The position numbers were made by a program, and so were the translations under genes. From positions 128,001 through 192,000 of IMG/VR virus record IMGVR_UViG_3300045988_151351: a stretch of DNA of 64,000 nt; one strand, 5' to 3'. The DNA comes from a virus. Below the pieces are notes generated by a model. The model saw nothing but the letters and a program-made list of their open reading frames with translations. It had not been told where the DNA came from and did no database searches. The first letter of the stretch is position 1; each line of letters begins with the position of its first letter. Positions 32,190-58,415 of the stretch are shown piece after piece.

Positions 32190-33300
32190 TTTAATACGAA
32201 GCAACTATGAAAAATTACCTAAAGTGGGTATGAAAAATTACCTAACTAAATCTTTATAATCAAAGCAAAATTTCGTCAATCGCTTCTTCTAACTTTTACC
32301 ATCAAAAAAGCTAACATAATCTATTAATTCAGAATTACATAAAAATGTTAAAGCATTATTAACAATTTCATAACCACGAGTATTATTCTCTACTTTAATA
32401 CCACTATGTTCCCCTAACTCTTTTAAAGTAAATTCATACTATGTTCCTCGTTCCAATGCCCATTTATATCTCTAACCAAGATATACATAAATCTTTATAA
32501 TATGCTCTTTACAATTATCATTTATATACTATAAAGTCTTTAATGGAATTAAAAAATATATATTCTCCATTTCAGGTAACATATATTTATCTTCTTCTTC
32601 AATAACATAACCCTACTCAATTAAATAACTTAAATGTGATTTATAAGTCTTGGGGCTTTTGATACCTAATGTCTTACATATCTAAGACTATGAAGGTAAT
32701 GATTTCTTTAATACAAAAGTTCTAAATAAATTATTATCTTTATCTATTACTTCATAAGTAGATAAAGTCTATAAATAAGCATATAACTCACCATTAATTT
32801 TTTTATCATTTAAAAAAGTAAGAACTTCCATAGTAGTATTCGCCGGAAAGCGCTTTTTATCTTCAGCCAATTTAATATTGCCTCCTTTCATACTTTATTT
32901 AAAATCTAAATAGGTAAAATTAACGATTTTTACCCAACTAAATAAAAATAGGAAACTATGAAAAATTACCTAATCAGCACTTCGGTTTCCCGATCAGTGG
33001 CTATGAAAAATTACCTAAAATTTTAAATAAAAAGAGGAACATATGAAAAATTACCTAAAAATTTTACCTAATTTATCCACTTTAAATAAAAATAGGAAAC
33101 TATGAAAAATTACCTAATTTGGTTTTAAACACTTATTTATGACCAACTAATAGAAATTTTTGACCAAAACAATAGAAATTTTTGGACAAAAATATAGAAA
33201 ATTTTGACCATTTATCAGAAAATTTTGACCATTTTCATTTAAAACGACCATTTTATATTTTTATTAGAAACTATGAAAAATTACCTAATTTAACTAAAAT
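32190..33300. repeat. dispersed repeat CTATGAAAAATTACCTAA (at least 8 copies) and AGAAAATTTTGACCA (4 copies)
   Basis: Copies at about 32206, 32229, 32952, 33000, 33042, 33097 and 33279. TTTTGACCA copies at 33150-33240. Confidence 0.75.
32238..32891 (-). CDS. HTH transcriptional regulator, about 217 aa, about 8 TAG codons
   Basis: RBS GGAGGCAATATT. Hand translation gives SQICKTLGIKSPKTYKSHLSYLIEQGYVI, an HTH-like segment. Confidence 0.4.
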
Positions 33301-33390
33301 ATAACTAATTAAAAATTTACCAATTTGATTTTTAATAAAAAATAATATATAATATTTATAGAAAATGAAAAAAGAAAGGTATTGATAAAA

Positions 33391-33723
33391 ATGAGTATTG
33401 AATATTCCGCAGTTATTACACGCGGCTACCGCCTCAATGCCGCAGACATGAAATCTCTTACCAAAGATCAAATTCTAGAACTCTATAATACAGAATTTCT
33501 TAAAGACTACAATTTGGATATCGCCGGTTGGGAACATGATGAAAATTGGTACGGTGTTCTTGGCATTACTCTAGATTACTGCGATCAAGATAGCTATCCC
33601 GCAGAAATTGATCCTTCACATTACACTGATGAAGACCTCTTTATCAAAGACCTTTTATCACGTTATTTTCCTAATAAGAAAGACGCTGAAATTCACACCT
33701 ATCTAGGCGTAAAAATCTCATAA
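33391..33723 (+). CDS. hypothetical protein, about 110 aa; first gene of the middle block
   Basis: AT-rich promoter at 33335 and RBS AAAGAAAGGTATTGATAAAAATG. Confidence 0.45.
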   Translation: MSIEYSAVITRGYRLNAADMKSLTKDQILELYNTEFLKDYNLDIAGWEHDENWYGVLGITLDYCDQDSYPAEIDPSHYTDEDLFIKDLLSRYFPNKKDAEIHTYLGVKIS

Positions 33724-33734
33724 GGAGAAACCGC

Positions 33735-34193
33735 ATGATTACAACTTGTCATCAATGCGCATATTCAAAAGATAAAACTGGCGCATATTCATTGTGCGTG
33801 CTCTTGGGCAAAAATGTTCAATTAGATTCTCCCAGTTGTGGTGAATTTTATCGTATTAAATATAATTGTACTTCATGCGGTAAACAGATTTATCATAAAG
33901 AAGTTTTATTCTATAATGATAAGCCTTTTTGTAAAGAATGCGCAGCCAAGTTTAGTAGTTGCGCGCACTGTAAATTTTCTGGCAATTGCGCCTTTGAAGA
34001 AGATCCAAATCCAATTCCAAAACTTATCCAACAGCAAGTGCGTATGCCACAAGGCATTGCCGTGAAAACAGTAATGAATCCGAAGCGTATTGAAATTACG
34101 TGCGCACGGAATTGTTCTTGTTTCGACAAAGAAAATAAAGAATGTAATAGAAATTATAAAGTATGTAGCGATTATAGCGAGAAGGAGTATTAA
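33735..34193 (+). CDS. Cys-rich multi-zinc-ribbon protein, 152 aa
   Basis: At least 6 CxxC pairs. Confidence 0.45.
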   Translation: MITTCHQCAYSKDKTGAYSLCVLLGKNVQLDSPSCGEFYRIKYNCTSCGKQIYHKEVLFYNDKPFCKECAAKFSSCAHCKFSGNCAFEEDPNPIPKLIQQQVRMPQGIAVKTVMNPKRIEITCARNCSCFDKENKECNRNYKVCSDYSEKEY

Positions 34194-34195
34194 AA

Positions 34196-34704
34196 TGTGG
34201 CTTTGGTTTGTTATTACTGGCATAATTATTATTCTCCTAGTAGGTAATACAATTTATTGGGAAGAAGGCATTGGTACTGTTATTTTAACTATCATTGGCG
34301 GAATAGTGATCGGCGCCCTTGTTTGCGGAATGCTCGCATTCCTTATCGGCGGCGTTATTAGTAATAATTCAGATATTATGATAGATACTATCGAATCTAA
34401 TAATGAAATCATCGCATTAGCAGATAATAATCAAACTTATTTGTATCGTTCTGCCGATAAAAATAATAATATTAGATACAATTATATGATTAAAACAGAG
34501 CGTGGTTATCTCACTCAGAGTGTCCTAGCAAATCGCGCCTATATTATCGAAACTGATGATAAAACACCAAGTGTAGAAACACATCAAATAACTTATAAAT
34601 CTAAATTCCTGCGTAAGCATTTTTTCAATGACAACGCTCCATATTATTATATTTATGTTCCAAAAGGCACAATTATAGGAGGATTTACAATTGACTTACA
34701 ATAA
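34196..34704 (+). CDS. membrane protein, about 169 aa
   Basis: Two N-terminal TM helices. Confidence 0.45.
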
Positions 34705-34814
34705 GACAGAATGGTGGCAGAGCCTTTTTGATCCTAATAAAGATTATTATTGTTAATCTTTTATAATATTATTATACATAAAAAAATCTATAAAATCAAT
34801 ATAAGGAGAATTAT

Positions 34815-35222
34815 ATGTTATTGCTTATTGGCGCAATTGTTCTTTGTATTATTTCATATTTTATTATGAAAGCTACTGAAGATAGGTATAAAGAACCAGC
34901 TCTTGTTTTAAATATCATTTTTACCGTTTTATTCATTCTTATGGTTATTTGTGTTATTGTTTGTCTAGTGGTAATTATCGGAAATCAGATTGCTGGTATT
35001 GCTACTGCTCAAGCTCTTGAAGTTCAACGTAATTCACTTGTCTATCAGTATAATAACCAGCTTTATCTTAATGATATTAATTATGGCGCAAATGAATTGT
35101 TTAATCAGATTACAGAATTTAATGAGCGTGTACGTGGTAAGCAAGCAATGGCAGAGAACCTTTGGACAAATTGGTTCGTTCCATCTTGTTGGAAAAATGT
35201 CGAATTGATTCCTTTTAATTAA
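34815..35222 (+). CDS. membrane protein, 135 aa
   Basis: Two TM helices. Confidence 0.45.
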   Translation: MLLLIGAIVLCIISYFIMKATEDRYKEPALVLNIIFTVLFILMVICVIVCLVVIIGNQIAGIATAQALEVQRNSLVYQYNNQLYLNDINYGANELFNQITEFNERVRGKQAMAENLWTNWFVPSCWKNVELIPFN

Positions 35223-35449
35223 CTATTAAAGGTCTTTTGGTTATTACCAAAAGACCTTTATTGATTTTTTATAAAAAATATATTATAATATTTATATAAA
35301 ATAAAGAAAATAATAAAGAAGGTACGATTTATGAAGAAAACTATTTTTTTGAGTGATTATGAAATGTTTACGAACTTTATTATGAATAATTTTCTTGAAA
35401 CTCTCCGAGGTGAGGGTATTCTTATTGATCTGGGTTAAGGAGAATTAAG

Positions 35450-35686
35450 ATGTTTTATAGATATAAAGTTAAGTTTTATGATGAAGTAAATCATAAAGAT
35501 GATTCCCAATGTGGAATCGTTCATAGTGAAGAGGATAGCGGCACGGGTTATCAAGATGCTATTATGAAAGTGTGGCGTCATTACGATAATATTAATGAGA
35601 TCACTCTCGCGGAGCTGTCTGATAATTCGTGTCTTATTGTTGATAGTGACGCCTTGCGAGAAATTGAAGATAATGTAAACTGGTGA
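35450..35686 (+). CDS. hypothetical protein, 78 aa
   Basis: RBS AAGGAGAATTAAG. Confidence 0.4.
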   Translation: MFYRYKVKFYDEVNHKDDSQCGIVHSEEDSGTGYQDAIMKVWRHYDNINEITLAELSDNSCLIVDSDALREIEDNVNW

Positions 35687-35705
35687 AAGGGGCACTTGGG
35701 CAAAA

Positions 35706-35912: not shown

Positions 35913-35933
35913 ATAATTAAAAGGAGGTATAAT

Positions 35934-36665: not shown

Positions 36666-36947
36666 TGAATATTTCTGAGTATCTTGATATATGTAGCGAT
36701 TTGCGACATTAGATTGCGGATTATGATAATAAAATTCTTGAACTCTTAGAGACAAGAATTAATTTATCTAAAAATTTAATTAAAATTAAATTATCTCAAA
36801 ACCAAAATGCTTATGATCCAATAGTAGAAGATAAAAAGATAGAAACATTGTGTGCGCAAACCGCGTACCCTGACTTGGTTAAAATTATTTGGCCCCTCAT
36901 TATGTTATATTGCCGCGCTTCAGAAGGTCTTAATGAAAATTAAGACC
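36666..36947 (+). CDS. AroQ-type chorismate-mutase-like protein, about 93 aa, 1 TAG codon
   Basis: EYLDICSDLR-x-IADYDNKILELLETRINLSKNLIKIK matches the AroQ helix-1 pattern (R..IDxxDxxLLxLLxxR). Confidence 0.35.
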
Positions 36948-37006
36948 TTCTTTGATTTTTTATAAAAAATATAATATAATATAAATAGAAAGTGAGGGAA
37001 TGATAA

Positions 37007-38234: not shown

Positions 38235-38337
38235 TATATATAAAAATCAAAGCTATTCAAAAGAATAGCTTTGATTTTTTATAAAAAATATATTATAATA
38301 TTATTATAAAAGATAAGAAATGAAAGGAATTGATATT

Positions 38338-40267: not shown

Positions 40268-40565
40268 ATTTGGGAAATTAATTAGTCATCTTGTAGATGC
40301 TTTTGTGCTCGCAGTTATGATTGCTGTTATTGTAGTTTTGATATTGCGATAAGGAGGTTAATTATGGATTGTGATCCTGCGGTTCTTGGACTTCTTGCCT
40401 GTATTTGTATTATGGGGATTGCTTTCGCTTTAGATTATTGGCACCGAGTGAAATAATAAAAGGGAGGAGATAATCCTCCCTTTTTTGATTTTATAAAAAA
40501 TAAATGATATAATATATATGTAAGATAAAGAAAGAGATAAATGAAATAAAGGAGAGTGCGTAGAT

Positions 40566-48683: not shown

Positions 48684-48708
48684 AATGATTTATAAGTCTT
48701 GATTTTAT

Positions 48709-48779: not shown

Positions 48780-48897
48780 CGGGAATTTGTCACAATACCT
48801 TCACGTGGTGTTCCTGTTTTTACTAAAGTTGTGGCAAGTTTGTTAAATTTACCTGCCAAAATTTTCATATATTACTGAGAAAGGTAGGTAAATTTTA

Positions 48898-49542
48898 ATG
48901 AATGGATTTATTTATAAAATTACAAATGATATAAATGATAAAGTATATATAGGAAAAACTTTATCATCTATTGAGAATAGATTCAAAGAACATAAGTAGG
49001 AAAGCCAAAGAGAGTCAGAACAAATTCGACCTTTATATCGAGCAATGAATAAATATGGAAATGAGCATTTTCATATTGAAGAAGTTGAAGAATGTCCTTT
49101 AGAAATTTTATCAGAAAGAGAAAAATATTGGATAAAATATTTTTCTTCTTATGAAAATGGCTATAATGCTACAATGGGTGGCGATGGTAAATAGTTATAT
49201 GATTATGATGAAATTGTAAAAGGTTTTTTATCAGGAAAATTAATGTATGAATTAGCAAATGAATTTGAATGCTGTCAAGATACTATCCGCGCAGCTTTAA
49301 GTTTAGCTAATATAGATTCTACTATTAATGCTAATAAAAAATTAAAAAAAGGAATTATAGCGAAAGATTTAAATGGAAATGTAGTAAAGATTTTTGATTC
49401 TCGGATAGAGGCTGTTAAATGGTTACAAGATAATAACTATGTTGCTAAATCTGTCGTAAAAGATAATGTTATAGCCGCAATAGGTCGAGTAGCTAATGGA
49501 AAACGTAAAAGTGCTTATAATTTGATTTGGGAAAATTTTTAA
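48898..49542 (+). CDS. GIY-YIG homing endonuclease (I-TevI-like), about 214 aa, 2 TAG codons
   Basis: GFIYKITNDINDKVYIGKT...RFKEHK is the GIY-YIG motif. EREKYWIKYF block. ORF 49243..49542 is in frame downstream of TAGs. Confidence 0.6.
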
Positions 49543-49995
49543 TATTTGCCAGTCAAAAAGAAATTTTTTGATTTTATAAAAAATAAATGATATAATATAT
49601 ATGTAAGATAAAGAAAGACAATTACAGCAATTTTAATTTTTTCAAATTGATTGGTAATCCGTGTGTTGTTGGTTCGAGTCCAACTCGTGCGTATTAATTT
49701 ACAAACGATAGCTCAAATGGCAGAGCAACGTAATTAAAAAAGTTGTCTTGTTTTATTTAGTTAAAAAATCTTTTTGATTTTTTATAAAAAATATGATATA
49801 ATATTTATATCAAATGAAAGAAAAAAATAAATAGTTTGGTAGTACCCAGAAAATGAGAGCTGAGCCTTGGGAGATGAGTCAAAGGAACAAAAGACTTTAT
49901 GAAGCGGACAGCCTCGCCAAACAAACCTTGCTTTCCCAAGCAGGTATATACTTACCTGTGACTCGCAGGACTAAATATTGGGAAGAGTATCTTAT

Positions 49996-50070
49996 GGGAG
50001 ACTAGCCTAGTGGTTCAGGCAGCGGACTGTTAATCCGCCAAGCAAGGTTCAATTCCTTGGTTTCCCGCCA
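49996..50070 (+). tRNA. tRNA-Asn(GTT)
   Basis: Acceptor GGGAGAC/GTTTCCC. Anticodon stem GCGGA/TCCGC, loop CTGTTAA. Encoded CCA. Confidence 0.6.
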
Positions 50071-50322
50071 TTATTGGTCTTATACATGGGGTTTCCGATT
50101 TGAACTAAATAGCTAATTACTATTCTTGTGGCAATAGACCAATTAAAAATAAACTGAGGCAAAGGGAAATCGGGTTTAATGTATAGCTATAAAGAAATTT
50201 TATAGTTAGCTATGATGAACTTCATAGTAAAATCCTCTCATAATCAAGTTAATTGGGAGAGGGGTAGTGCGGGAACGGGGAGAAGCGCGCTATAAAAGGT
50301 GAAATACTTCTTTCCACCATAT

Positions 50323-50398
50323 GCCGGTGTAGCCGAATGGCATAGGCGAATGATTTAGGATCATTAATCTGAAGGTTCGAGTCCTTTCACCGGTACCA
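50323..50398 (+). tRNA. 76-nt type-I tRNA with anticodon TAG (reads CUA/CUG); isotype uncertain
   Basis: Acceptor GCCGGTG/CACCGGT. Anticodon stem AATGA/TCATT, loop TTTAGGA. T arm GAAGG-TTCGAGT-CCTTT. A73 and CCA. Confidence 0.45.
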
Positions 50399-50464
50399 TA
50401 AGCCGATATCTTTGTACTATCCGGTGGTTGGCAACTCCATCGTTATGTAAATAAGTTGCTAATA

Positions 50465-50536
50465 TGCCTTATGGTGTAATGGAAACACGCCGCCCAGTAG
50501 AGGGCGGAGTCTTTGGTTCGAATCCAAATGAGGTAA
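50465..50536 (+). tRNA. tRNA-like gene with an 8-nt anticodon loop CAGTAGAG
   Basis: D stem GTGT/ACAC. Anticodon stem CCGCC/GGCGG. T arm TTTGG-TTCGAAT-CCAAA. Confidence 0.3.
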
Positions 50537-50874
50537 TGGTGATTAGAAAAGGGAATGATAATCGCCCATAAAGTAATATAGGATTATCATTATAGATTAT
50601 ATTTATTAAAAATGGCGGCTAAATCTTATATTAGTTACTTGAAAAATATGTGATGCTGCGAGACCTATCAAGTTAGTCTATAAATCACTTGAAGCTATCT
50701 TTTACGCTTACTCTTTTGATTGTTTGGACTGCTTTACGCAAAAGGAAAAATGGAAAAGAGGGTAAGGCTTAACCATAAAGCCAGCTTTTTTGTGAATGAC
50801 TTTTTAAGAGGGGATATAAAAGTTATTTAAGGTGATACTGCCTTGGCGGGTCCGGAACCGCCGAAATGTGATAT

Positions 50875-50958
50875 GCTCTGGTGGCGGAATGGCAGACGCG
50901 ATCGGCTCAAACCCGATTGTCGAAAGACGTGTGGGTTCAAGTCCCACTCTGAGCACCA
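50875..50958 (+). tRNA. tRNA-Leu(CAA), long variable arm
   Basis: Anticodon stem ATCGG/CCGAT, loop CTCAAAC. Variable arm TGTCGAAAGACGTG. T arm GTGGG-TTCAAGT-CCCAC. CCA. Confidence 0.6.
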
Positions 50959-51318
50959 AAAGGATTTAGCATATTAAATTCTTTTTGACATTTTTAAAAA
51001 AATATGATATAATATTTTTACAAAGTTAAGAAAGGAATTTAAAAAAGATGTTCAATGACTTTGATACTCAAATCCAATCCGATGAATTTGAATGGCAGTT
51101 CCTTGAATGGTGTAGACTAATGGAGGAGGAATATGGAAATGAATACCAAGAAGAAAATTGATAGACGCATCTTTAAGAAAAGTCCTGATGAACTTCAAGA
51201 ATATATGATGTTTAAACGACGCGGTTCTCGAACTCCTGCAAAAAAGGGTAAGGGAATGAAATATGAACGCGCACAAGAAAAAGAAAAGTCAAGAAATTTG
51301 GTTTCTGATAATTAATTT

Positions 51319-51394
51319 GGCCCCATCTACTAATTGGCTAGGTGGTAACCCTCTCAAGGTTAAGATGGCGGTTCGAATCCGTCTGGGGTCACCA
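51319..51394 (+). tRNA. tRNA-Glu(CTC)
   Basis: Acceptor GGCCCCA/TGGGGTC. Anticodon stem TAACC/GGTTA, loop CTCTCAA. Confidence 0.45.
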
Positions 51395-51463
51395 ATGCCT
51401 TTTACACCACCAAAAAGGCTGAGGTCCCGTGGGAGCCTCCCGCCAAAAGTCCCACATTTTTAA

Positions 51464-51540
51464 CGGCGCATAGACAAATAGGTATAGTCACTACCCTTTC
51501 AAGGTAGAATGTAGGGGTTCGACCCCCCTTGCGCTGACCA
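51464..51540 (+). tRNA. tRNA-Glu(TTC)
   Basis: Anticodon stem CTACC/GGTAG, loop CTTTCAA. T arm AGGGG-TTCGACC-CCCCT. Confidence 0.5.
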
Positions 51541-51543
51541 TAT

Positions 51544-51619
51544 GGTGCTGTAGTTCAGTTGGAAGAATGCCAGCCTGTCACGCTGGAGGTCGTGGGGTCA
51601 GGACCCATCAGCATCGCCA
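51544..51619 (+). tRNA. tRNA-Asp(GTC)
   Basis: Acceptor GGTGCTG/CAGCATC. Anticodon stem CCAGC/GCTGG, loop CTGTCAC. Confidence 0.55.
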
Positions 51620-51726
51620 TTCGCTTTTTCCTATGTAAGCGATTTTGAAGCATAGAACTTGATGGAGCGTTCTATTAGTCTGATGCCTGCATTAGATTAA
51701 GTTTTATAACCATCACAATTAAATAT

Positions 51727-51803
51727 GCCTGTGGAGCTTATGAGGAACAAGCGCTAGACTCATACCCTAGAGATATTTGGTTCGAATCCAAAGGCAGGCA
51801 CCA
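51727..51803 (+). tRNA. tRNA with anticodon CAT; candidate Ile2 or second Met
   Basis: D stem GCTT/AAGC. Anticodon stem CTAGA/CCTAG (4/5), loop CTCATAC. T arm TTTGG-TTCGAAT-CCAAA. Confidence 0.4.
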
Positions 51804-51804
51804 T

Positions 51805-51878
51805 TGCGGTGGTCTTCTAACGGTAGGATACTGGGCTCATAACCCGGAGACGCGGTTCGATTCCGCCGACCGCAACCA
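51805..51878 (+). tRNA. tRNA-Met(CAT)
   Basis: Anticodon stem CTGGG/CCCGG, loop CTCATAA. T arm CGCGG-TTCGATT-CCGCC. Confidence 0.5.
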
Positions 51879-52227
51879 GTTCAATTTATTTGAACAGTCT
51901 CCAATTTTTCATTTGATTGTCTTATTTTGTTCATAAAATGTAATATGTAAGCCCTTAGATGTTGTGCGTTTCTTCTAAGGTATCATAGTATTAGACGTAT
52001 TCAGCAAATATTCTTTAAGAATAATTTTCGTGATTTGGTTTCACATTTTAATTGCAAATTAAAACGAATAGGTTCGAGTCCTATATATTATCTTTTTACG
52101 TCTAGTGATTTTAATAAGTCGGTTAAGTACATTTAAATAGTTTCTATAATTGATTAAAAGACACAAACAGCCATTAAATATTTCTAATGATATTTGAAAG
52201 TAATTGTGTCTTGTTTTTTATTCCTAT

Positions 52228-52304
52228 GGGCAGATAGCTTATGAGGTCTGAGCACTGGTCTGAAAAACCAGAGGGTGAAGGGTCGGTACCTTCTCTGCCC
52301 ACCA
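52228..52304 (+). tRNA. tRNA-Phe(GAA) with a non-canonical T-loop GTCGGTA
   Basis: Acceptor GGGCAGA/TCTGCCC is perfect. D stem GCTT/GAGC. Anticodon stem CTGGT/ACCAG, loop CTGAAAA. Confidence 0.5.
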
Positions 52305-52572
52305 TTGAAGAACAGCACGAGAGGATCCATATAGGAATAATGATGTTGTATGGCTGCTGGGATTCCTTTGAAAGAATAAGGACTACTCTTTTCTATATAT
52401 TTGGATATATAGGAACAAAAAACTATTCAATAGAGAGAGTTTTTTACATCTAGTTTGTTTTATGTTTTTCTTTAACTTCCTGTTTTGTATCCTTTCGATG
52501 GGTGGTCATGTTTTGTTTTCTCTCCTCTTTCTGTAAAGCAAATCGTTTTTTTACTCTCTATTTTTCATATAT

Positions 52573-52664
52573 GCGGAGGTCGCATAGAGGCCGAGTGCGG
52601 GGGATTGCTAATCCCTTGACCGGGGCAACCCGGTCCGAGAGTTCGAATCTCTCCCTCCGCGCCA
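52573..52664 (+). tRNA. tRNA-Ser(GCT), long variable arm
   Basis: Acceptor GCGGAGG/CCTCCGC. Anticodon loop TTGCTAA. T arm GAGAG-TTCGAAT-CTCTC. Confidence 0.6.
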
Positions 52665-52841
52665 TTAGACTTGATAACTGCAAAAATCTACTACTAATAA
52701 TATTTTCAAATAATAGATAGATGAAATATTATGAAAATCTAAAGTAAGTAATTGGACAAACTTTGTATTTCAATAAGGAAAGTGATTTATTTACTTTTCT
52801 AATATTTATTTTCTAGTCCTGCGAGTCTAGTAATTGAATAT

Positions 52842-52932
52842 GCTGGGGTGCGCAAGCGGTCATAAGCGCCTAGTCTTGAAAACTTGTGTGAGCTAATTAC
52901 TCCCGTGGGTTCGAATCCCACCCCCAGCGCCA
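52842..52932 (+). tRNA. tRNA-Ser(TGA), long variable arm
   Basis: Acceptor GCTGGGG/CCCCAGC. Anticodon loop CTTGAAA. T arm CGTGG-TTCGAAT-CCCAC. Confidence 0.5.
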
Positions 52933-52957
52933 ACAAAAAGAAAGGATAATATAAATT

Positions 52958-54076
52958 ATGAATGTTGTTAATGCTGGTAGCCGATTTCAAATTTATGGTG
53001 AAGATGTAAAAACGTATAAGCGTCTTCCAACTATGTCTTTTGAAGTTAGCTTTAATAAAATGACTGGCTTTTTCTTGGTTTCTCGGCCTGATTTGTCAAT
53101 TAATGAAGAAAAGATTTACGGTAATCATGAAGCAAAAGTAAATAAAGTAATTAAATCTTACAAGTGTTCAACTCGTAATTTTGGTATTATTTTAAGCGGT
53201 CAAAAGGGTATTGGCAAGTCTCTATTTGCTCGCGTCCTTGCGGCAAAAGCTATCGAAAATGGATTTCCGGTAATCATTGTTAATGAATATATTCCGGGCA
53301 TTGCTAATTTTCTTAGCTCTATTGAGCAAGAAGTCGTAGTCATTTTTGACGAATTTGAAAAGACTTTTGGTGAAGTTGAGCATAGTGATCCGCAGGAAGA
53401 AATGCTTTCTTTGTTTGATGGACTTGATAATGGCAAGAAACTTTTTGTTATTACTTGTAATGAAACCCGTAAATTAAATGAGTATCTTCTTAATCGCCCC
53501 GGTCGTTTTCATTATCATTTTATGATTAATTATCCAACAGAAAATGAAATTAGAGAATATCTCAAAGATAAGTTGTCACCGGATTATTATGAGGTAATTA
53601 ATTCTATTGTTAATTTTTCTCGTACAATTAACATGACTTATGATTATCTGCGTGCTATTGTTTTTGAAATTAATCAGGGTTATAGCCTTGAGGAAACTTT
53701 AAATGATCTTAATATCACTCAGAGCAGTTCTGTTACTTTCAATATGACAGTTACTCTCACTTCTGGTAAAGTATATACAACTTATGGTCGTCATATTGAT
53801 TTGGCTGAGACTTCTTATGAATGGTATGACGCATATGATACCAAGAGTGATAATAGATTACGGTTTGCGATTATTCCTAGCAAAATCACTTTTAGAGATG
53901 GACAGCTTTATATCAAGGGTGAAAATACTAAGATTTATGTTGATCCTGACGATTATTGGCAGATTGAAGACGAAGATGAGCGCAAGGCTGTAATTAAAAA
54001 GGCTGAGTCTCAGAGCATTAAAGAAGTTACTTTCCAGAAAAATACTCCTGATTTTACAACGAAGTATCTTGTTTGA
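52958..54076 (+). CDS. AAA+ ATPase, 372 aa
   Basis: Walker A GQKGIGKS, Walker B VVVIFDEFE, sensor NRPGRF. Confidence 0.6.
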   Translation: MNVVNAGSRFQIYGEDVKTYKRLPTMSFEVSFNKMTGFFLVSRPDLSINEEKIYGNHEAKVNKVIKSYKCSTRNFGIILSGQKGIGKSLFARVLAAKAIENGFPVIIVNEYIPGIANFLSSIEQEVVVIFDEFEKTFGEVEHSDPQEEMLSLFDGLDNGKKLFVITCNETRKLNEYLLNRPGRFHYHFMINYPTENEIREYLKDKLSPDYYEVINSIVNFSRTINMTYDYLRAIVFEINQGYSLEETLNDLNITQSSSVTFNMTVTLTSGKVYTTYGRHIDLAETSYEWYDAYDTKSDNRLRFAIIPSKITFRDGQLYIKGENTKIYVDPDDYWQIEDEDERKAVIKKAESQSIKEVTFQKNTPDFTTKYLV

Positions 54077-54142
54077 TTTTATAAAAAATTTATGATATAA
54101 TATATATGTAAGGTTGAGAGATAAATAATCTCTCCCTTATAT

Positions 54143-54228
54143 GCCGGTGTGGTGGAATGGTAGACACAAGGGACTTAAAATCCCTCGGTGGCAGCACTGT
54201 GCGGGTTCGAGTCCCGCCACCGGCACCA
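54143..54228 (+). tRNA. tRNA-Leu(TAA), long variable arm
   Basis: Acceptor GCCGGTG/CACCGGC. Anticodon stem AGGGA/TCCCT, loop CTTAAAA. CCA. Confidence 0.6.
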
Positions 54229-54260
54229 CGTAGATATTAATCTACGAAGTTAGGCTTAAC

Positions 54261-54626
54261 TTGAAAATATTTTATGAATCCAGTAGAAAAGAAAGTTTCT
54301 ACTGGATAAAAGCATTAGGAGGCTTTAAAATGAAATTTTATTCAGAACTGACAAAGAATTTTTATGAAAGTGAAGATGCCTGTAAGCAGGCTGAAAGTAA
54401 GTTCAATAAAGAGCTTGCTGAGAAGGAAGCTAAGGAGAAGGCTTTGAAGGCTGAACGTAAGCAGCGCGCCGAAGAGGTTAATGATGCATACAAGGCTATT
54501 AAAGAAGCTGAAAAGCATTATTGCGAACTCCGCGATCAATTTATAAAGGATTATGGTAGTTTCCATATGACATTTACTGATACTGGTAGTTTCTTCTTTG
54601 ATCCTTTCAGATTTACTATTCTGTAA
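54261..54626 (+). CDS. coiled-coil protein, 121 aa
   Basis: K/E-rich heptads. Confidence 0.4.
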   Translation: MKIFYESSRKESFYWIKALGGFKMKFYSELTKNFYESEDACKQAESKFNKELAEKEAKEKALKAERKQRAEEVNDAYKAIKEAEKHYCELRDQFIKDYGSFHMTFTDTGSFFFDPFRFTIL

Positions 54627-54789
54627 TGAATGTGCCGTTTCCTGTTTATCCGATCTTTTAGACGGGAAACGGCATTTTCCTCATATTTGGGTCTTTAGCT
54701 CAGTTGGCAGAGCACCTGATTCTTAATCAGGGTGTCCGGGGTTCAAGCCCCCGAAGGCCCACCAAATTTAGTTAGGAGTAAAAATTATT

Positions 54790-55668
54790 ATGGAGTATAC
54801 TGGATATTTTGTCAAATTTAATAATTTTGCTGCGCACCCCTCTGGAACAGGTCGTTTACATATTGATGTTTTAAGTAAATATTCTCAAGTACTTTGGGGA
54901 CAATGGCGAAATGGTATAAATCTTTTGAATGAAAAAATTCGTAAAGAAATGAATGATGTTGCACCTTTTAAGTTTTATGCTTTAGATAAATCTGTAGCTT
55001 TATTAAAAATGAATGTGACTCGAGTACTTACTCGTGAAGAAGTTATTGCAGAAAAGTTAGAATATCTTATTCCAGATTATTATAATATTGATACACCATG
55101 TTCAGCATATTATCTTATTGATAAAATTGAAATTCTACCCGTTGAATCTGCACTTAAAATAATTAATATCAATACTAAGAAGTCAATCTATGATTCAGCT
55201 CAAGTGAATAGTACGACTCCTTGGAGAGTATGTGAAATTGATAATGATTTAGGAATAGAAAATATTGTTATTCCTAGTGTAACAACTAAATCTGTTAAAT
55301 TTAATCCGCCTGTCTCTTCTGAAAATATATCTAATATTATTTCTCATAAGTCTAAAAATGAAACCTATTGTATTTATCAATATTATTCTAAAACTATGAA
55401 GAAAAGTTATATTGGCTTAACTAATGATATTAATAGGCGTAAAAAAGAACATGAAAGTCCTAGCAATTGGACGCGAGAAAAGAAAAAATATCTTTATACA
55501 GCAATGCAACTTATGGGATTAGATGATTTTGAATTCCATATTCTGCATGATAATTTGTCTGAGGAAGATGCTCATTACTGGGAAGCAAAAGAAATTGAAA
55601 ATCATCATTCTTATTTCCCGGACGGATTCAATGAAAGAAATGAATCCCGATTCTTAAAAAATATTTGA
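54790..55668 (+). CDS. protein with a C-terminal GIY-YIG nuclease domain, 292 aa
   Basis: YCIYQYYSKTMKKSYIGLTNDINRRKKEHES is the GIY-YIG motif. Confidence 0.5.
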   Translation: MEYTGYFVKFNNFAAHPSGTGRLHIDVLSKYSQVLWGQWRNGINLLNEKIRKEMNDVAPFKFYALDKSVALLKMNVTRVLTREEVIAEKLEYLIPDYYNIDTPCSAYYLIDKIEILPVESALKIININTKKSIYDSAQVNSTTPWRVCEIDNDLGIENIVIPSVTTKSVKFNPPVSSENISNIISHKSKNETYCIYQYYSKTMKKSYIGLTNDINRRKKEHESPSNWTREKKKYLYTAMQLMGLDDFEFHILHDNLSEEDAHYWEAKEIENHHSYFPDGFNERNESRFLKNI

Positions 55669-55735
55669 TTTTTTAAAAAATTTATGATATAATATATATG
55701 TAAGGTTGAGAGATAAATAATCTCTCTCTTATATG

Positions 55736-56020
55736 CCGGATTAAACAATAGTAGCTAACGATAGTTGAATAGACGGGTCGGGGCTAACATAGAAAGGTTA
55801 GCAGGTAGTGCGGCGGTAGGTAACAAATCCGCAAGTCGAAATGAGTCGGGAAAACCGAATGATACGGCTTAGATGTTTTCCTCATTTGAGGTTTGGATGG
55901 AGATTTTAGGCGAAGGATAACAACCTTTGACTGCCATCTTGTAAAGCGACCATGAAACCGGGTCATAGCTACCATGCTATTGTTTATTTTTAATGTGCGG
56001 GTTTAAGTCCCACCACTAGT
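55736..56020 (+). ncRNA. structured non-coding RNA candidate, about 285 nt, expressed from a duplicate of the tRNA-Leu(TAA) promoter and leader
   Basis: Promoter and leader at 55660-55745 are near-identical to 54075-54152. First 10 nt TATATGCCGG are shared with the tRNA. No ORF. Ends with a T-arm-like GCGGGTTTAAGTCCCAC. Confidence 0.35.
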
Positions 56021-56039
56021 ATTAAATCTATCCCTTTAG

Positions 56040-56116
56040 CTTAGTGGAATAAAGCGCGTGGCTACGAACCACGAGACCGGGAGTTCGAGTCTCTCAAGGG
56101 ATGCCATGTGGCTGTA
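56040..56116 (+). tRNA. tRNA-Arg(ACG)
   Basis: Acceptor ATCCCTT/AAGGGAT. D stem GCTT/AAGC. Anticodon stem CGTGG/CCACG, loop CTACGAA. Confidence 0.55.
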
Positions 56117-56117
56117 G

Positions 56118-56193
56118 TTCAGTTGGTAGAACGTCTGATTGTGGCTCAGAAGGTCGTGGATTCAATTTCCACCAGTCACCCCATATGCTCTCG
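56118..56193 (+). tRNA. tRNA-His(GTG)
   Basis: Acceptor GTGGCTG/CAGTCAC. Anticodon stem TCTGA/TCAGA, loop TTGTGGC. Confidence 0.55.
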
Positions 56194-56196
56194 TAG

Positions 56197-56335
56197 CTCA
56201 ATCGGTAAGAGCCGGCGACTTATCCAAGATTAGTTTAAATGGTAAAATAGTCTATGCGCAAGAAAGATGTAAGTTCAAATCTAACATCTTGGGCCAAATC
56301 GCCAGATGTGGGTTCAAGTCCCGACGGGAGCACCA
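56197..56335 (+). tRNA. 139-nt tRNA with an insertion of about 79 nt in the anticodon loop; the insertion is itself tRNA-like
   Basis: Outer acceptor GCTCTCG/CGGGAGC, D stem GCTC/GAGC, anticodon stem GGCGA...TCGCC. The insert is bounded by CCAAGAT/ATCTTGG (7/7 bp) with D-arm GTTT-AAATGGTA-AAA and T-arm GTAAG-TTCAAAT-CTAAC. Confidence 0.4.
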
Positions 56336-56703
56336 TTAACCAACAAGCCTATGGCGACAACTCTAAGCTCAAACCGTTGGTTTTCTGAACAAACGAATAA
56401 AAACCTTTCGTTCTAAGACCTAAAGTACGAAGCAGGGTGACAACCTCCAGAAATGGGACTTAGTTTTGGGTTAAAGTTGAGCGTTTATTATAAATTGATC
56501 TCGTCAATTAATTTTTAATAAATGCGATTTTTTATGCAAAAGTAGTCAAGAGGTTTAAGACCCCAATCTGCAAAACTGTGTGACTCTTTGGGCGTGGGTT
56601 CGAATCCCGATGGGAGCACCATAAGGCATAAACAGCAAATAATTAAATATTTTGCCATTTTCTTTTAAGCGAATGACGCACCATTTTATTATGCCTAGTA
56701 TAT

Positions 56704-56780
56704 ACTTCATTAGCTCAATGGACGAGAGCATCTGATTTCTAATCAGAGGGTTTGAGGTTCGAGTCCTCAATGAAGTGCCA
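56704..56780 (+). tRNA. tRNA-Arg(TCT)
   Basis: Acceptor ACTTCAT/ATGAAGT. D stem GCTC/GAGC. Anticodon stem TCTGA/TCAGA, loop TTTCTAA. Confidence 0.55.
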
Positions 56781-56795
56781 ATGTGAGGATTATAA

Positions 56796-57146
56796 ATGAA
56801 AATTGAATTTAAACAAAGTCAAGCTGATTATTTTAATTATGTAATTCAAAAATATGGCGGTAGTTGGGAATTATCTGAAGGAGTTATTATTCTTCAAAAT
56901 GAAGATGACTATTTCCGAATTGAACATAATAATGTTACAACTGGAAAATTATATACTGCTTGGCATAAAAATCATTTTCATAATAAAAATGATTTTCATA
57001 AACAATTATCATTACATAATTTAAGAAAATTGTTTTTTAGATGTGCTACTCATAAAATGCGTTGTAAAGAAAAAAGATGTTATAAGCGTTCAGATTATAT
57101 TCAAGATATGGAAGATTATAGAAATTTTCAGAAAGCTTTAAAATGA
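56796..57146 (+). CDS. hypothetical protein, 116 aa, in the tRNA island
   Basis: Intact ORF with RBS. Confidence 0.4.
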   Translation: MKIEFKQSQADYFNYVIQKYGGSWELSEGVIILQNEDDYFRIEHNNVTTGKLYTAWHKNHFHNKNDFHKQLSLHNLRKLFFRCATHKMRCKEKRCYKRSDYIQDMEDYRNFQKALK

Positions 57147-57199
57147 TAAATTGATTTTATAAAAAATTTATGATATAATATTTATACAAGATAAAGAAA

Positions 57200-57325
57200 G
57201 ACAGTATCAGCAATTAATGATATTTGCTTTGGGAGCCGGAAATTATAGGTTCGAATCCTATATCCCTGACCAATTTCGGGGATTAGTTTAAATGGATAAA
57301 ACGCCGTTAAAAATCTGTCTTGTGT
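57200..57325 (+). ncRNA. candidate circularly permuted or split tRNA: a 3' half (T-arm TATAGG-TTCGAAT-CCTATA, acceptor ATCCCTG, ACCA) directly followed by a 5' half (acceptor CGGGGAT, TA, D-arm GTTT-AAATGGAT-AAAC)
   Basis: The two acceptor strands pair 7/7 with one G-U. Anticodon-stem halves CCGTT and GCCGG pair 4/5. Confidence 0.3.
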
Positions 57326-57327
57326 AT

Positions 57328-57404
57328 GGAGATGTAGTTCAGTTGGTTAGAATATTCGACTGATAATCGAAAGGTCAGTGGTTCAAATCCACTCATCTCT
57401 ACCA
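57328..57404 (+). tRNA. tRNA-Ile(GAT)
   Basis: Acceptor GGAGATG/CATCTCT. Anticodon stem TTCGA/TCGAA, loop CTGATAA. Confidence 0.55.
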
Positions 57405-57430
57405 TTATTCCAACAGAAAGGAATTTTAAG

Positions 57431-57670
57431 ATGAAACTTACAAACATTTCTCAGGTCGAAGATTTTATCGCCGCGGTTAATCGCGCACATAGTAATGTAT
57501 GGCTTGTAAGTCCGCAGGGTGATAGATATAATATGAAATCTGCGCTTTCTCAGTATATTGCTCTTGGAGCTTTGCTTGGTCAGCATGGTGATGAACTTGA
57601 GCTTTTCTGTGATAGTAAGCAGGATGAAGGATTGTTTATTGAATTTTTCGTTAAGCATCCTGAAGTCTAA
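57431..57670 (+). CDS. small hypothetical protein, 79 aa
   Basis: RBS AAAGGAATTTTAAGATG. Confidence 0.4.
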   Translation: MKLTNISQVEDFIAAVNRAHSNVWLVSPQGDRYNMKSALSQYIALGALLGQHGDELELFCDSKQDEGLFIEFFVKHPEV

Positions 57671-57708
57671 TTTAACATTTAAACTATTTTAATTAAAATA
57701 GTTTATAT

Positions 57709-57785
57709 CCGGGTGTAGTTCAGTTTGGTAGAACGCTTGATTTGGGATCAAGAGGCCGTGAGTTCAAGTCTCGCCACTCGGACCA
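57709..57785 (+). tRNA. tRNA-Pro(TGG)
   Basis: Acceptor CCGGGTG/CACTCGG. Anticodon stem CTTGA/TCAAG, loop TTTGGGA. Confidence 0.55.
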
Positions 57786-58080
57786 TCAGGGTTCTGTTAA
57801 AAATATATAATTGAAAAGGATTGATCTCCCTGAGTAGATTTGTATTTGAATGAAAAAATGAGGTCTAGATGACACAGATAACCTCCCCTGAACCATCCCT
57901 TTTCCTAATATGTGGTCTGGGTTAAACAATTAGGCACTGCTCGTATTCATATTACCTATGCGGTATATGGATTCCTCGTATTTAAGACTCTGTAACAGCA
58001 AATGATTTAACATAATAACTGTTTAATTCTCTTTTAAAGAATTTTTTGTAATTTTGTTTTTAAGAGTCTTGTTTAATTAT

Positions 58081-58155
58081 ACTGGTGTCGCCAAGTGGGA
58101 AGGCACAGGACTTTGACTCCTGTATTCGTTGGTTCAAATCCAACCACCAGTGCCA
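58081..58155 (+). tRNA. tRNA-Gln(TTG)
   Basis: Acceptor ACTGGTG/CACCAGT. Anticodon stem CAGGA/TCCTG, loop CTTTGAC. Confidence 0.55.
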
Positions 58156-58239
58156 TTGTGCCAGAAGAACAAATGATCCGATGGGCAAATAAAATATTTA
58201 TTCGGGATGTGTGGTTCAACTACCTAAAGTTATTTATAT

Positions 58240-58325
58240 GGGAGAGTGGCAGAGTGGTCAATTGCGGCGGACTGTAAATCCGTTGCCTTCGGGCTTCGTT
58301 GGTTCAAATCCAACCTCTCCCACCA
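58240..58325 (+). tRNA. tRNA-Tyr(GTA), long variable arm
   Basis: Acceptor GGGAGAG/CTCTCCC. Anticodon loop CTGTAAA. Confidence 0.55.
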
Positions 58326-58415
58326 ATTAAAAGATTAATTACGAGAAAAATAAGTAAAAATTTATTTGATTTTTATAAAAATAAATGATATAATATTTAT
58401 AGAAAATAAAGATAT

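Follow-up and report, generated by a model that had tools for sequence, protein, structure and literature searches.

The analysed window is a 64-kb stretch of the genome, roughly 125–155 kb long, of an uncultured gut phage in which TAG codes for an amino acid. The phage is related to Bacillota-infecting phages and has strong Shine-Dalgarno sequences, and its AAA ATPase and capsid-region proteins are ~40% identical to those of Enterococcus, Bacillus and Brochothrix phages. The 33.3–58.4 kb part of the window holds 18 co-directional copies of a promoter-like repeat, here called family 2, 15 with a TTGATT −35 element and three with TTGACA (Table 1). All 18 lie on the coding strand, 20–200 nt 5' of the start codon of a Shine-Dalgarno-bearing ORF or of a tRNA or other RNA gene. 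The −35 elements of two copies take in TGA stop codons: that of the AAA-ATPase ORF at 54073 and, at 44222, the one that closes a read-through extension of ORF 42324-43952, in a frame that stays open as far as 44225. ORF 44975-45778 contains two in-frame TAG codons. A separate iteron array, different from the element, occupies 32940-33300.

Table 1. Family-2 promoters and associated features in the window (hybrid: TTGACA with an A/T spacer; ΔG in kcal/mol).
Feature	Coordinates	Strand	−35 start	Details and context
Promoter, TTGATT-17-TATAAT, with conserved initial transcribed region	33325..33377	+	33325	5' of ORF 33391-33723; immediately right of iteron array
Fused unit	35227..35313	+	35261	Hairpin 35227-35260, 15 bp, ΔG −21.1; promoter 35261-35289; initial transcribed region
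Fused unit	36922..37004	+	36952	Hairpin 36922-36951, ΔG −17.7; promoter 36952-36980; 5' of ORF 37007-37270
Fused unit	38242..38323	+	38271	Hairpin 38242-38279; promoter 38271-38299; 5' of ORF 38338-39048
Fused unit	40458..40537	+	40485	Hairpin 40458-40484, ΔG −17.3; promoter 40485-40513 with TGn; 5' of ORF 40566-40796
Fused unit	42221..42307	+	42255	Hairpin 42221-42256, ΔG −23.4, overlaps promoter 42255-42283; 5' of ORF 42324-43952
Promoter	44222..44274	+	44222	Followed by short hairpin, then promoter 44319
Promoter	44319..44371	+	44319	Tandem with 44222; 5' of ORF 44392-44808
Hybrid promoter	44925..44977	+	44925	5' of ORF 44975-45778
Hybrid promoter with TGn	45765..45817	+	45765	5' of peptidase-like ORF 45830-46852
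tRNA cluster	48611..58727	+		25–27 tRNA genes interspersed with eight family-2 promoters
Promoter	48538..48590	+	48538	45 nt 5' of tRNA-Phe(AAA), then tRNA-Trp
Promoter	49568..49620	+	49568	5' of tRNA-like RNA 49644-49753 (weak YrlA match)
Promoter	49774..49826	+	49774	194 nt 5' of tRNA-Asn
Hybrid promoter with TGn	50985..51037	+	50985	5' of small ORF and tRNA-Glu/Glu/Asp/Met run
Promoter	54073..54125	+	54073	Followed by leader hairpin; tRNA-Leu(UAA) 42 nt downstream
Promoter and leader	55665..55739	+	55665	97%-identical duplicate of 54072-54147; 5' of RAGATH-33 RNA
RAGATH-33 RNA	55754..55866	+		Rfam RF03102, 137.9 bits vs gathering score 120.4
Promoter	57151..57203	+	57151	149 nt 5' of tRNA-Ile
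Promoter	58366..58418	+	58366	Last copy; 22 nt 5' of tRNA-Val, then amber-suppressor tRNA
Amber-suppressor tRNA, anticodon CUA	58653..58727	+		Last tRNA of cluster; downstream of promoter 58366

Across the whole window and both strands, TTGATT-N17-TATAATA occurs 17 times, against 0.01 expected from shuffles. Fifteen matches lie on the plus strand inside the 33.3–58.4 kb region and the other two on the minus strand (31512 and 34799); three plus-strand TTGACA variants with the same A/T spacer (44925, 45765 and 50985) complete the family. A repeat search of the window grouped 17 copies of a 64-nt unit. The sequence-only reading had claimed at least 17 copies, and the element is indeed present at all 16 of the sites that it listed; the copies at 44925 and 45765 are additional to these. 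Its proposal that the element drives tRNA genes is also correct, eight copies lying in the tRNA cluster. Its 48-nt consensus described a real element but fits closely in only ~4–5 copies, as the register of the T-run shifts; a search with the literal 28-mer, allowing three mismatches, recovered two copies.

The spacer is exactly 17 bp in every copy and consists of a T-run and an A-run, with only 0–2 G+C among its 17 positions. Four to six T make up the T-run, with corresponding shifts in register, and from copy to copy the A-run/T-run block moves by 2 bp against the hexamers. A TGn motif precedes TATAAT in 11 of 18 copies, forming an extended −10, and a purine-rich initial transcribed region is conserved across the family. 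The alignment holds ~63 bits of information, of which the two hexamers together account for only ~18, leaving ~45 outside them. A short palindrome, ATTTTTTATAAAAAAT, lies inside the repeats.

Strong GC hairpins abut the promoter in five of the 18 copies (35261, 36952, 38271, 40485 and 42255), all between 35.2 and 42.3 kb. Their folding energies range from −13 to −23 kcal/mol (z −4 to −7.6) and their U-tract is TTGATTTT; at 38242-38279 the 3' arm takes in TTGATTTTT of the −35. The earlier suggestion that many copies carry a GC hairpin ending in the T-run, making terminator and promoter a single unit, thus describes this subset but not the remaining copies, and none of the tRNA-region copies has such a fused hairpin.

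The TTGACA-N17-TATAAT core of the other promoter family in the window, family 1, which was previously labelled early, occurs 31 times against 0.06 expected. The description of family 2 as clearly distinct from it was overstated: TTGA, the 17-bp spacing, TGn and TATAAT are common to both, and nine hybrids joining TTGACA to a family-2-type A/T spacer (13129, 19252, 26294, 29928, 30007, 30862, 44925, 45765 and 50985) occur inside both regions. In family 1, a hairpin encloses the −35 in 7–11 of 22 cases, which largely accounts for its GC-rich spacers; this is a different terminator geometry, not a different recognition code. TAG codons are absent from nearly all genes behind either family but number 3–9 in each structural gene, suggesting that both families belong to a pre-suppression phase, within which a finer order is possible.

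The cassette architecture is kept in ~50 viral contigs that are related but share only 44–59% identity in their AAA ATPase. TTGA, the 17-bp spacing and TATAAT are fixed across these contigs, while −35 positions 5–6 are lineage-specific (TT, AA, CT or CA). The published relative phAss-1, from the proposed Phassvirus group (Babkin et al. 2023, PMC10607447), likewise reads TAG as sense in its structural genes, has suppressor tRNA-CUA genes in a large tRNA cluster and shows the same two-tier promoter layout, but its proteins are ~50% identical and there is no DNA-level match. Its equivalent family, TTGAC(A/T)nAAAAAAATTTTTnTGnTATAAT, also has fused hairpins and tRNA targets; it differs in its −35 (TTGACA or TTGACT) and in the order of its A/T spacer, A7T5 compared with T6ATA6 here. 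Promoters are not mentioned in the phAss-1 paper.

Consensus hexamers, exact 17-bp spacing, coding-strand orientation and position 20–200 nt upstream bear out the view that the copies are promoter-like, and they are very likely near-perfect host-type promoters of the primary sigma-factor class. Their anatomy, strand, position, statistics, clade-wide conservation and hairpins are directly shown, and from these we infer activity, strength, timing and holoenzyme. Most probably, each is a ~55-bp cassette read by host RNA polymerase with its primary (sigma-A/sigma-70 type) sigma factor. The cassette comprises a −35 (TTGATT, or TTGACA in three copies), a 17-bp T-run/A-run spacer almost devoid of G/C, in most copies an extended −10, TRTGnTATAAT, matching the Gram-positive "−16" form, and an initial transcribed region that is A/T-rich and then purine-rich (ATATATgtAAgATAAAGAAAG), ending in or near the ribosome-binding site. 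Non-structural regions of the genome would thereby be partitioned into short, strongly transcribed units holding hypothetical genes, a phosphoesterase, a peptidase, the AAA ATPase, homing endonucleases, two small RNAs and ~26 tRNAs, among them the amber suppressor. Five of the units have a predicted intrinsic terminator of the upstream unit fused to the cassette, with TTGATTTT(TT) serving both as U-tract and as −35 plus spacer start. This dual use plausibly explains why this lineage has T instead of CA at −35 positions 5–6. Copies in one genome are presumably kept alike by duplication and recombination among them (concerted evolution), while they drift between genomes. Three observations sit awkwardly with this reading: 15 copies are fixed for TTGATT even though TTGACA is the stronger −35; ~45 of the 63 conserved bits lie outside the hexamers; and the split between GC-rich and A/T-only spacers, kept in phAss-1 too, is not fully explained by promoter strength alone.

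In addition to this promoter role, the cassettes could matter mainly as portable recombination sites resembling those of T4-like phages, with homologous exchange between copies shuffling, inserting or deleting the modules that separate them, a possibility to which we give appreciable but less than even weight. In a comparison with five close relatives and one further contig (L009), five of 36 homology-breakpoint clusters fell inside cassette windows, which make up 5.7% of compared bases (p = 0.052). A gene replacement starts at 35313 in a 96%-identical relative and another replacement at 49824 in two relatives, the ends of the initial transcribed regions of the 35261 and 49774 copies, and an indel common to two relatives ends exactly where the −35 at 57151 begins. 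Promoter-led tRNA-Ile and tRNA-Phe(AAA) modules, neighbours in L009, are separated by 8.6 kb in the window, and a 1.5-kb segment absent from a close relative ends on its right with the 97% cassette and leader duplicate (55665). Yet the enrichment at cassette edges is marginal, most breakpoints lie instead at tRNA gene ends, tRNA anticodon loops or homing-endonuclease genes, and no event is a clean cassette-to-cassette crossover.

Alternatively, both families may use the host sigma-A holoenzyme while something acting on the spacer or flanks separates them in time or strength, which we consider unlikely. Candidates include an early phage DNA-binding protein, such as the AbrB/MazE-fold ORF 18537-19007, which lies in the family-1 region, or an HTH protein; supercoiling changes that affect GC-rich and A/T-only spacers unequally; and the order in which the DNA enters, should family 1 be close to a genome end, as it is in linearised phAss-1 (127.7–130.8 of 136 kb, near the right end). 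Distant relatives keep the split between GC-hairpin and A/T-tract spacers, and the rarity of TAG behind both families leaves room for finer ordering. Against this, no regulator has been identified, no binding motif is fixed in register, and the family-1 spacers owe much of their G+C to the enclosing hairpin.

The phage-directed switch in promoter recognition that the sequence-only reading inferred is not supported; the repeated element alone does not show one. On that view, family 2 would be a distinct temporal class, unread until the phage has re-programmed the polymerase with its own sigma factor or through T4 AsiA/MotA-like sigma appropriation, with TTGATTTT and the spacer as recognition box. 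The regional division of −35 choice, with TTGATT never joined to a GC-rich spacer, would suit such a class, as would conservation of the spacer and initial transcribed region well past what hexamers require and the two-tier layout kept in two relatives (L002 and L006) and phAss-1. We nevertheless judge it very unlikely: both families carry host primary-sigma determinants, with both family-2 hexamers and their spacing fitting that consensus, and hybrids within both regions bridge them. Known phage-directed classes replace the −35 (T4) or both elements (SPO1) and family 2 does not, which argues against a switch. Relatives vary only −35 positions 5–6 (TTGAAA or TTGACT), phAss-1 keeps the canonical TTGACA, and the A/T block, which shifts by 2 bp between copies and is inverted in phAss-1, makes a fixed box for protein binding less plausible. 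Neither a sigma factor nor a polymerase modifier was confirmed within the 64-kb window, although one may sit elsewhere in the genome; the only ORF labelled "sigma factor" by PHROGs was not confirmed as such, having no Pfam, PDB or fold support. That the repeats are instead iterons, packaging signals or mobile-element ends is scarcely credible, because their strong conservation and palindrome are outweighed by perfect hexamers at exactly 17 bp in every copy, by 18 copies strand-locked to genes, each just 5' of a start codon or RNA gene (the two minus-strand matches falling outside this set), by an identical design across the whole clade and by the separate, unlike iteron array.

T4 middle promoters depend on a MotA box and AsiA sigma appropriation, with the −35 replaced (PMC2988021). 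They too form a second class, in which a conserved box lies upstream of a host-type −10, but lack a −35 at 17 bp, the MotA box being centred at ~−30, whereas TTGA at exactly 17 bp is invariant here and relatives have full TTGACA. Bacillus phage SPO1 runs a cascade from sigma-A to gp28 to gp33/34 (PMC13401047). It and other large Bacillota phages offer a comparable background, with many near-consensus sigma-A promoters before short early units of small genes; unlike family 2, which keeps the sigma-A consensus, the middle and late SPO1 classes have consensus sequences other than that of sigma-A and are served by dedicated phage sigma factors. The gp28 and gp34 classes replace both promoter elements. 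Phage T5 promoters, reportedly described by Gentz and Bujard in 1985, are said to form very strong host-polymerase classes with common hexamers, set apart by conserved A/T-rich blocks that lie in the spacer, the upstream region and the initial transcribed region. Their temporal classes are set without a new sigma factor, by two-step DNA entry and phage factors. Here, too, hexamers are common while A/T-rich blocks differ, although T5 has a Gram-negative host type and its promoters are not as a rule terminator-fused.

Of the known systems, the closest is the promoter-early stem-loop (PeSL) cassette, a promoter/terminator unit found in T4-like phages (Arbiol et al. 2010, PMC2839356; Comeau et al. 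2014, PMC4122927). The lineages are unrelated, this phage being of Bacillota type, TAG-recoded and from the gut, and sequence homology is absent; moreover, the stem-loop occurs in only five of 18 copies here, many copies would drive tRNA or small-RNA genes, and a recombination role is only marginally supported (p ~0.05). In both cases, nonetheless, a small intergenic cassette is repeated, made up of a strong promoter with host consensus, an upstream part rich in A/T and a GC stem-loop terminator or attenuator, and it ends at the next gene's ribosome-binding site. Both kinds of cassette are also concentrated among small, poorly conserved genes, with some indel or replacement boundaries at cassettes.

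A single promoter cassette recurs through 33.3-58.4 kb of the window, and its sequence marks the copies as putative primary-sigma (sigma-A/sigma-70) promoters. A hexamer-anchored search found 17 matches to TTGATT-N17-TATAATA in the 64-kb window, where dinucleotide-preserving shuffles predict 0.01. Fifteen of these matches lie on the + strand between 33325 and 58366, and three more + strand copies (44925, 45765 and 50985) combine TTGACA with the same kind of A/T-only spacer. We refer to these 18 elements as family 2 and name each copy by the start of its -35. A repeat search of the window grouped 17 copies of a 64-nt unit, and the element was present at every position listed in the sequence-only reading. 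All 18 copies are co-directional with the genes (+ strand) and lie 22-200 nt 5' of RNA genes or of ORFs with a Shine-Dalgarno sequence.

Aligned on the -10, family 2 holds ~63 bits, of which the two hexamers together account for just ~18, with the consensus a.aaA.A..tt.t TTGATTTT ttA.AAAA.AtATgA TATAAT ATaTATatAA.aTaaAgaaA. Copies differ in the T-run behind TTGA (4 to 6 T) and in the register of the ATAAAAAAT block, which moves by as much as 2 bp. Because of this register shift, the literal consensus first proposed retrieved just 2 copies with 3 mismatches allowed, and hexamer-anchored searches took its place. Hexamer spacing is exactly 17 bp (17 +/- 1 bp is usual for primary-sigma promoters) and the -10 is a perfect TATAAT in 18/18 copies, while the -35 reads TTGATT in 15 and TTGACA in 3, with TTGA, the part of this hexamer that matters most, invariant. 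A TG one base 5' of the -10 occurs in 11/18 copies, often as TATGA-TATAAT or AATGA-TATAAT; those without it are 33325, 35261, 36952, 38271, 44222, 44319 and 44925. A TRTGn extended -10, or '-16 region', is typical of sigma-A promoters in low-G+C Gram-positive bacteria (Helmann 1995). We consider it likely that the copies are strong promoters for unmodified host sigma-A holoenzyme, spread as a ~55-bp cassette.

Viral contigs of 80-400 kb yielded ~65 loci for comparison in an exact-pattern scan and a protein-guided scan, and these place this cassette in a wider clade. Its design (TTGAnn, a T-run/A-run spacer, TGn-TATAAT and ATATATAgAAagTAAAgAAAg) is kept where the ATPase is just 44-59% identical to that of the window, and positions 5-6 of the -35 vary by lineage (TT, AA, CT or CA). 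The published relative phAss-1, which reads TAG as a sense codon, carries ~18 copies of TTGAC(A/T)nAAAAAAATTTTTnTGnTATAAT-atatatagaaagtgag at 89-126 kb, several with abutting GC hairpins, before tRNAs, NAD-salvage genes and other ORFs. The A/T-spacer family is therefore clade-wide, and since phAss-1 has a canonical -35 and the opposite order of the A/T block, TTGATT does not appear to be a recognition code of its own. These comparisons suggest that the copies in any one genome are alike through copying from cassette to cassette, and that composition and shape (no G/C, A-tracts) are conserved rather than a fixed box. A palindrome in the spacer was also considered as a fixed operator and rejected as the main reading, because the A/T block moves by 2 bp from copy to copy and has the reverse order in phAss-1.

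The sequence-only reading described family 2 as clearly distinct from an early promoter family (family 1). This distinction stands for the spacer, which is GC-rich in family 1 and A/T-only in family 2, but not for the promoter core. TTGACA-N17-TATAAT occurs 31 times in the window versus 0.06 expected, and family 1, found mostly at 16.5-29.8 kb, consists of TTGACAAA, a spacer with 6-12 G+C and TGTGnTATAAT. Common to both families are TTGA, the 17-bp spacing, TGn, TATAAT and a similar purine-rich leader, and nine hybrids (TTGACA with an A/T-only spacer) occur inside both family regions and outside them. The GC of family-1 spacers is largely the 3' arm of a hairpin holding the -35 hexamer in its loop, as in aagggcTTGACAAacaagccct, with dG <= -11 kcal/mol in seven copies and at least 4 enclosing pairs around the -35 in 11/22. 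Family 1 thus likewise joins a stem-loop to a promoter, in another geometry. The same design, a GC hairpin around the -35, is present at 127.7-130.8 kb of phAss-1, where TTGACAAG promoters have GC-rich spacers. Short, very GC-rich, self-complementary sequences that are not ORFs follow the family-1 promoters at 27868, 27977, 28953 and 29726 (+), and similar GC-rich self-complementary sequences follow those at 27711, 19448 and 17922 (-); these may be small or antisense RNAs. The segment at 27.6-28.4 kb has ~70% identity to several places in two related viral loci, L002 and L006.

The split between GC-hairpin spacers and G/C-free T-run/A-run spacers is kept from the window phage to phAss-1, and in L002 and L006 a run of 14 TTGACA promoters is followed by TTGATT promoters. 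Because this two-tier layout is conserved, it could be that the same holoenzyme serves both families while a factor or topology effect acting on the spacer separates them, a possibility that we regard as unlikely but worth keeping in view. The split might also define two temporal classes, both read by host sigma-A and told apart via the spacer and initial transcribed region, with altered DNA topology or a DNA-binding protein made early by the phage as the discriminator. We think this doubtful; if true, expression would switch in time under one and the same sigma factor, and this would time the suppressor-tRNA burst that unlocks translation of TAG-containing late genes. The originally proposed phage-directed switch in promoter recognition is improbable, since the -35, -10 and spacing are all host consensus, with no departure from primary-sigma, and relatives have TTGACA within the same A/T-spacer family; the claim of a new mode of promoter recognition does not hold up.

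Scanning for sigma factors and polymerase modifiers gave one named candidate, a 354-aa ORF (with TAG as Gln) matching PHROG 5767 'sigma factor' (E = 1e-52). This ORF had no Pfam sigma domain and no PDB sequence relative, and Foldseek with its AlphaFold2 model (low quality, pLDDT 64.6) gave no sigma-like fold. The PHROG label stands unconfirmed. The ORF has thousands of highly conserved homologues without a name, contains three TAG codons and a C-terminal CxxC...CxxC motif, lies just upstream of the terminase region, and is preceded by a TTGACA-17-TATAAT promoter. A Sigma70_r3 match in ORF 23415-23774 (119 aa; E = 0.004) fell below the cut-off and was set aside as merely a short HTH-like stretch. 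The other scanned ORFs of the 64-kb window included no sigma factor and gave an AbrB/MazE-fold protein, an HD-domain protein, HTH proteins and homing endonucleases. The AbrB/MazE-fold (SpoVT-AbrB) DNA-binding ORF lies behind a family-1 promoter and is a candidate early regulator.

Fusion of promoter and terminator is real, yet it is the minority arrangement. GC hairpins directly abut five consecutive family-2 copies (35261, 36952, 38271, 40485 and 42255), with stems of 11-17 bp, dG of -13 to -23 kcal/mol and z of -4 to -7.6 versus shuffles. Measured from the first T of TTGATTTT, these stems stop at 0 to -3 nt, and the -35 with the T-run behind it thereby serves as the terminator U-tract. The remaining 13/18 copies, including all eight in the tRNA region (0/8), have no such hairpin, so the suggestion that a GC hairpin ends in the T-run in many copies applies to 5/18. 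At related loci, a loose hairpin test beside promoters gave 14% against 16% in random controls, and a stricter test gave 15/308 cassettes (4.9%) versus 68/1923 random positions (3.5%), with no enrichment by either; the figure for the window was 6/43 versus 27/857. Terminator fusion is thus not general to cassettes across the clade. Where present, the terminators would insulate some transcription units, with the T-rich -35 doubling as U-tract in this lineage.

Copies at 33.3-48.3 kb stand before hypothetical genes and genes putatively encoding a calcineurin-like phosphoesterase, a DUF5052 protein and an M20/M28-like peptidase. Eight further copies are interspersed among the 25-27 tRNA genes at 48.5-58.7 kb, and the proposal that the element drives tRNA genes is correct by position, with copies before tRNA-Phe, -Asn, -Leu, -Ile and -Val. 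Two copies precede other RNAs. The RAGATH-33 RNA matched Rfam RF03102 at 137.9 bits, above the gathering score, and a literature search on it returned nothing; in L069, a close relative, RAGATH-33 comes after tRNA-Leu without a promoter of its own. The other is a tRNA-like RNA with a full-length but weak match to YrlA (Y RNA-like), which at 35.9 bits (E = 8.6e-5) falls short of the gathering score, 69. Three upstream frames have their TGA stop inside TTGATT (44223-5, 54074-6 and 55666-8). A 542-aa ORF without a family match (42324-43952) ends in TAG, and past this codon are 91 open codons with 3 more TAG and then the TGA inside the -35 of copy 44222; read-through to 44225 may yield a suppressor-dependent C-terminal extension.

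Promoter copies of the tRNA region and other features of the window and of locus L069
Feature	Position	Strand	Remark
Portal	6913-8598	-	In TAG-containing structural block
Probable large terminase	8980-10713	-	In TAG-containing structural block
ORF matching PHROG 5767	11933-12997	-	354 aa
Promoter of the PHROG 5767 ORF	13050	-	TTGACA-17-TATAAT
AbrB/MazE-fold ORF	18537-19007		Behind family-1 promoter
HTH_36/LexA-like ORF	32238-32891	-	Adjoins iteron array
Iteron array	32940-33300
Family-2 copy	48538	+	45 nt 5' of tRNA-Phe(AAA), then tRNA-Trp
tRNA-Phe	48611-48682		Unusual anticodon, AAA
GIY-YIG endonuclease gene	48898-49542
Family-2 copy	49568	+	5' of tRNA-like RNA 49644-49753 (YrlA match, weak)
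Family-2 copy	49774	+	194 nt 5' of tRNA-Asn
tRNA	50465-50536		Four-base anticodon (gtag) by ARAGORN
Family-2 copy	54073	+	42 nt 5' of tRNA-Leu
GIY-YIG endonuclease gene	54790-55668
Family-2 copy	55665	+	5' of RAGATH-33 RNA 55754-55866
'Long' tRNA	56187-56332		146 nt
Family-2 copy	57151	+	149 nt 5' of tRNA-Ile
Family-2 copy	58366	+	22 nt 5' of tRNA-Val, then suppressor tRNA
tRNA, anticodon CUA	58653-58727		Last of tRNA cluster
Terminator hairpin and late-type promoter candidate	59345-59460		Upstream of tail-fibre-like block
Interrupted tRNA loci of L069	3164-3627, 5536-6420, 11612-12089, 12774-13254 (L069 coordinates)		Inserts directly 3' of anticodon

Some family-2 copies coincide with the edges of exchanged segments in alignments of the window to locus L009 and to five close relatives, whose aligned blocks show 75-99% identity. 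One gene replacement begins where the conserved leader of copy 35261 stops (35313), and another replacement, in two relatives, begins at the leader end of copy 49774 (49824). A 368-bp ORF-bearing indel in two relatives ends exactly at the -35 of copy 57151, and indels of GIY-YIG genes end 14-21 nt 5' of copies 48538 and 49568. At the right end of a 1.5-kb window-specific segment (54229-55739), which carries tRNA-Lys and a GIY-YIG gene, promoter and leader are duplicated at 97% (55664-55739 versus 54072-54147). Furthermore, L009 has the promoter-led modules of tRNA-Ile and tRNA-Phe(AAA) side by side, and the window has them 8.6 kb apart. Breakpoint clusters fell inside cassette windows in 5/36 cases, against 5.7% of compared bases (p = 0.052), and most remaining breakpoints were at tRNA ends, tRNA anticodon loops and homing-endonuclease genes. 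These patterns are suggestive of shuffling at cassettes like that of the promoter-early stem-loop (PeSL) cassette of T4-like phages.

Putative mobile elements also occur around the tRNA genes. The two GIY-YIG endonuclease genes of the window are present or absent among close relatives. In L069, tRNA-Asn, -Asp, -Pro and -Val are split by inserts of ~440-890 bp; those in tRNA-Asn, -Pro and -Val hold open frames of 149-155 aa that resemble one another in their N-terminal regions, and that in tRNA-Asp holds a different frame of 107 aa. These inserts look like intron-like elements with a homing endonuclease, and Rfam found no group I intron in the inserts (~450 bp). The window has one 'long' tRNA.

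The recoding of TAG gives this promoter map its context. A DNA-level search with 7.9 kb of the window against 50,697 phage records returned no match, and relationships were established through proteins: the AAA ATPase shares 39-43% identity with proteins from phages (115-230 kb) of Enterococcus, Brochothrix, Bacillus and Lactococcus, and a capsid-region protein is 50% identical to that of 'Phage Phass-1' and 40% to those of Enterococcus phages of ~140 kb. The phAss-1 group comprises human-gut phages with TAG as glutamine, suppressor tRNAs and Clostridia as predicted hosts, and the paper describing it makes no mention of promoters (PMC10607447). The window resembles this group in using TAG as a sense codon and in having a tRNA-CUA. 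Reading through TAG turns 599-12997 (-) into closely packed long ORFs, each containing 3-9 in-frame TAG; + strand ORFs at 59755-61364 also contain in-frame TAG, while almost all ORFs behind family-1 and family-2 promoters use TAA or TGA as stop and contain no TAG. The tRNA cluster, including the amber-suppressor tRNA needed to translate structural genes, sits behind host-type promoters; unmodified host polymerase thus probably launches the change of genetic code, which it would set off via the suppressor tRNA.

A separate late-promoter motif within the structural block at 599-12997 (-) was rejected, as its junctions are too tight to contain one. The search for a late-type promoter gave a single candidate, upstream of 59471, and no second copy; here, a bidirectional terminator hairpin is followed by a family-2-like T-run/A-run without TTGA and with TAGGAAAAT replacing TATAAT. 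An iteron array, with ATGAAAAATTACCTAA ~6 times and AAATTTTTGACCA 4-5 times, adjoins a HTH_36/LexA-like ORF with 8 in-frame TAG, and may serve as an origin of replication or as binding sites for a regulator.

Family 2 differs from phage promoter classes that depart from the host consensus. Middle and late promoters of SPO1 have non-sigma-A consensus sequences, whereas family 2 keeps the sigma-A consensus. T4 middle promoters have a MotA box in place of the -35 (see PMC2988021), whereas family 2 retains its -35. The SPO1 middle and late classes are associated with a cascade of phage sigma factors (PMC13401047). The closest analogue appears to be the PeSL cassette, in which a terminator stem-loop and an A/T-rich upstream region accompany a strong sigma-70-like promoter and which has been implicated in modular shuffling (PMC2839356, PMC4122927). 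A composite of promoter and adjacent stem-loop is found here in 5/18 family-2 copies, and 7-11 of the 22 family-1 copies show a related arrangement in which the loop encloses the -35. PeSLs are repeated in variable regions, and the cassette region here is rich in hypothetical genes. For the large gut phages of this uncultured clade, in which TAG is a sense codon, our data offer a ready map of promoters and terminators, and by this analogy the promoter-plus-terminator cassette design of T4-like coliphages would extend to an unrelated phage lineage.
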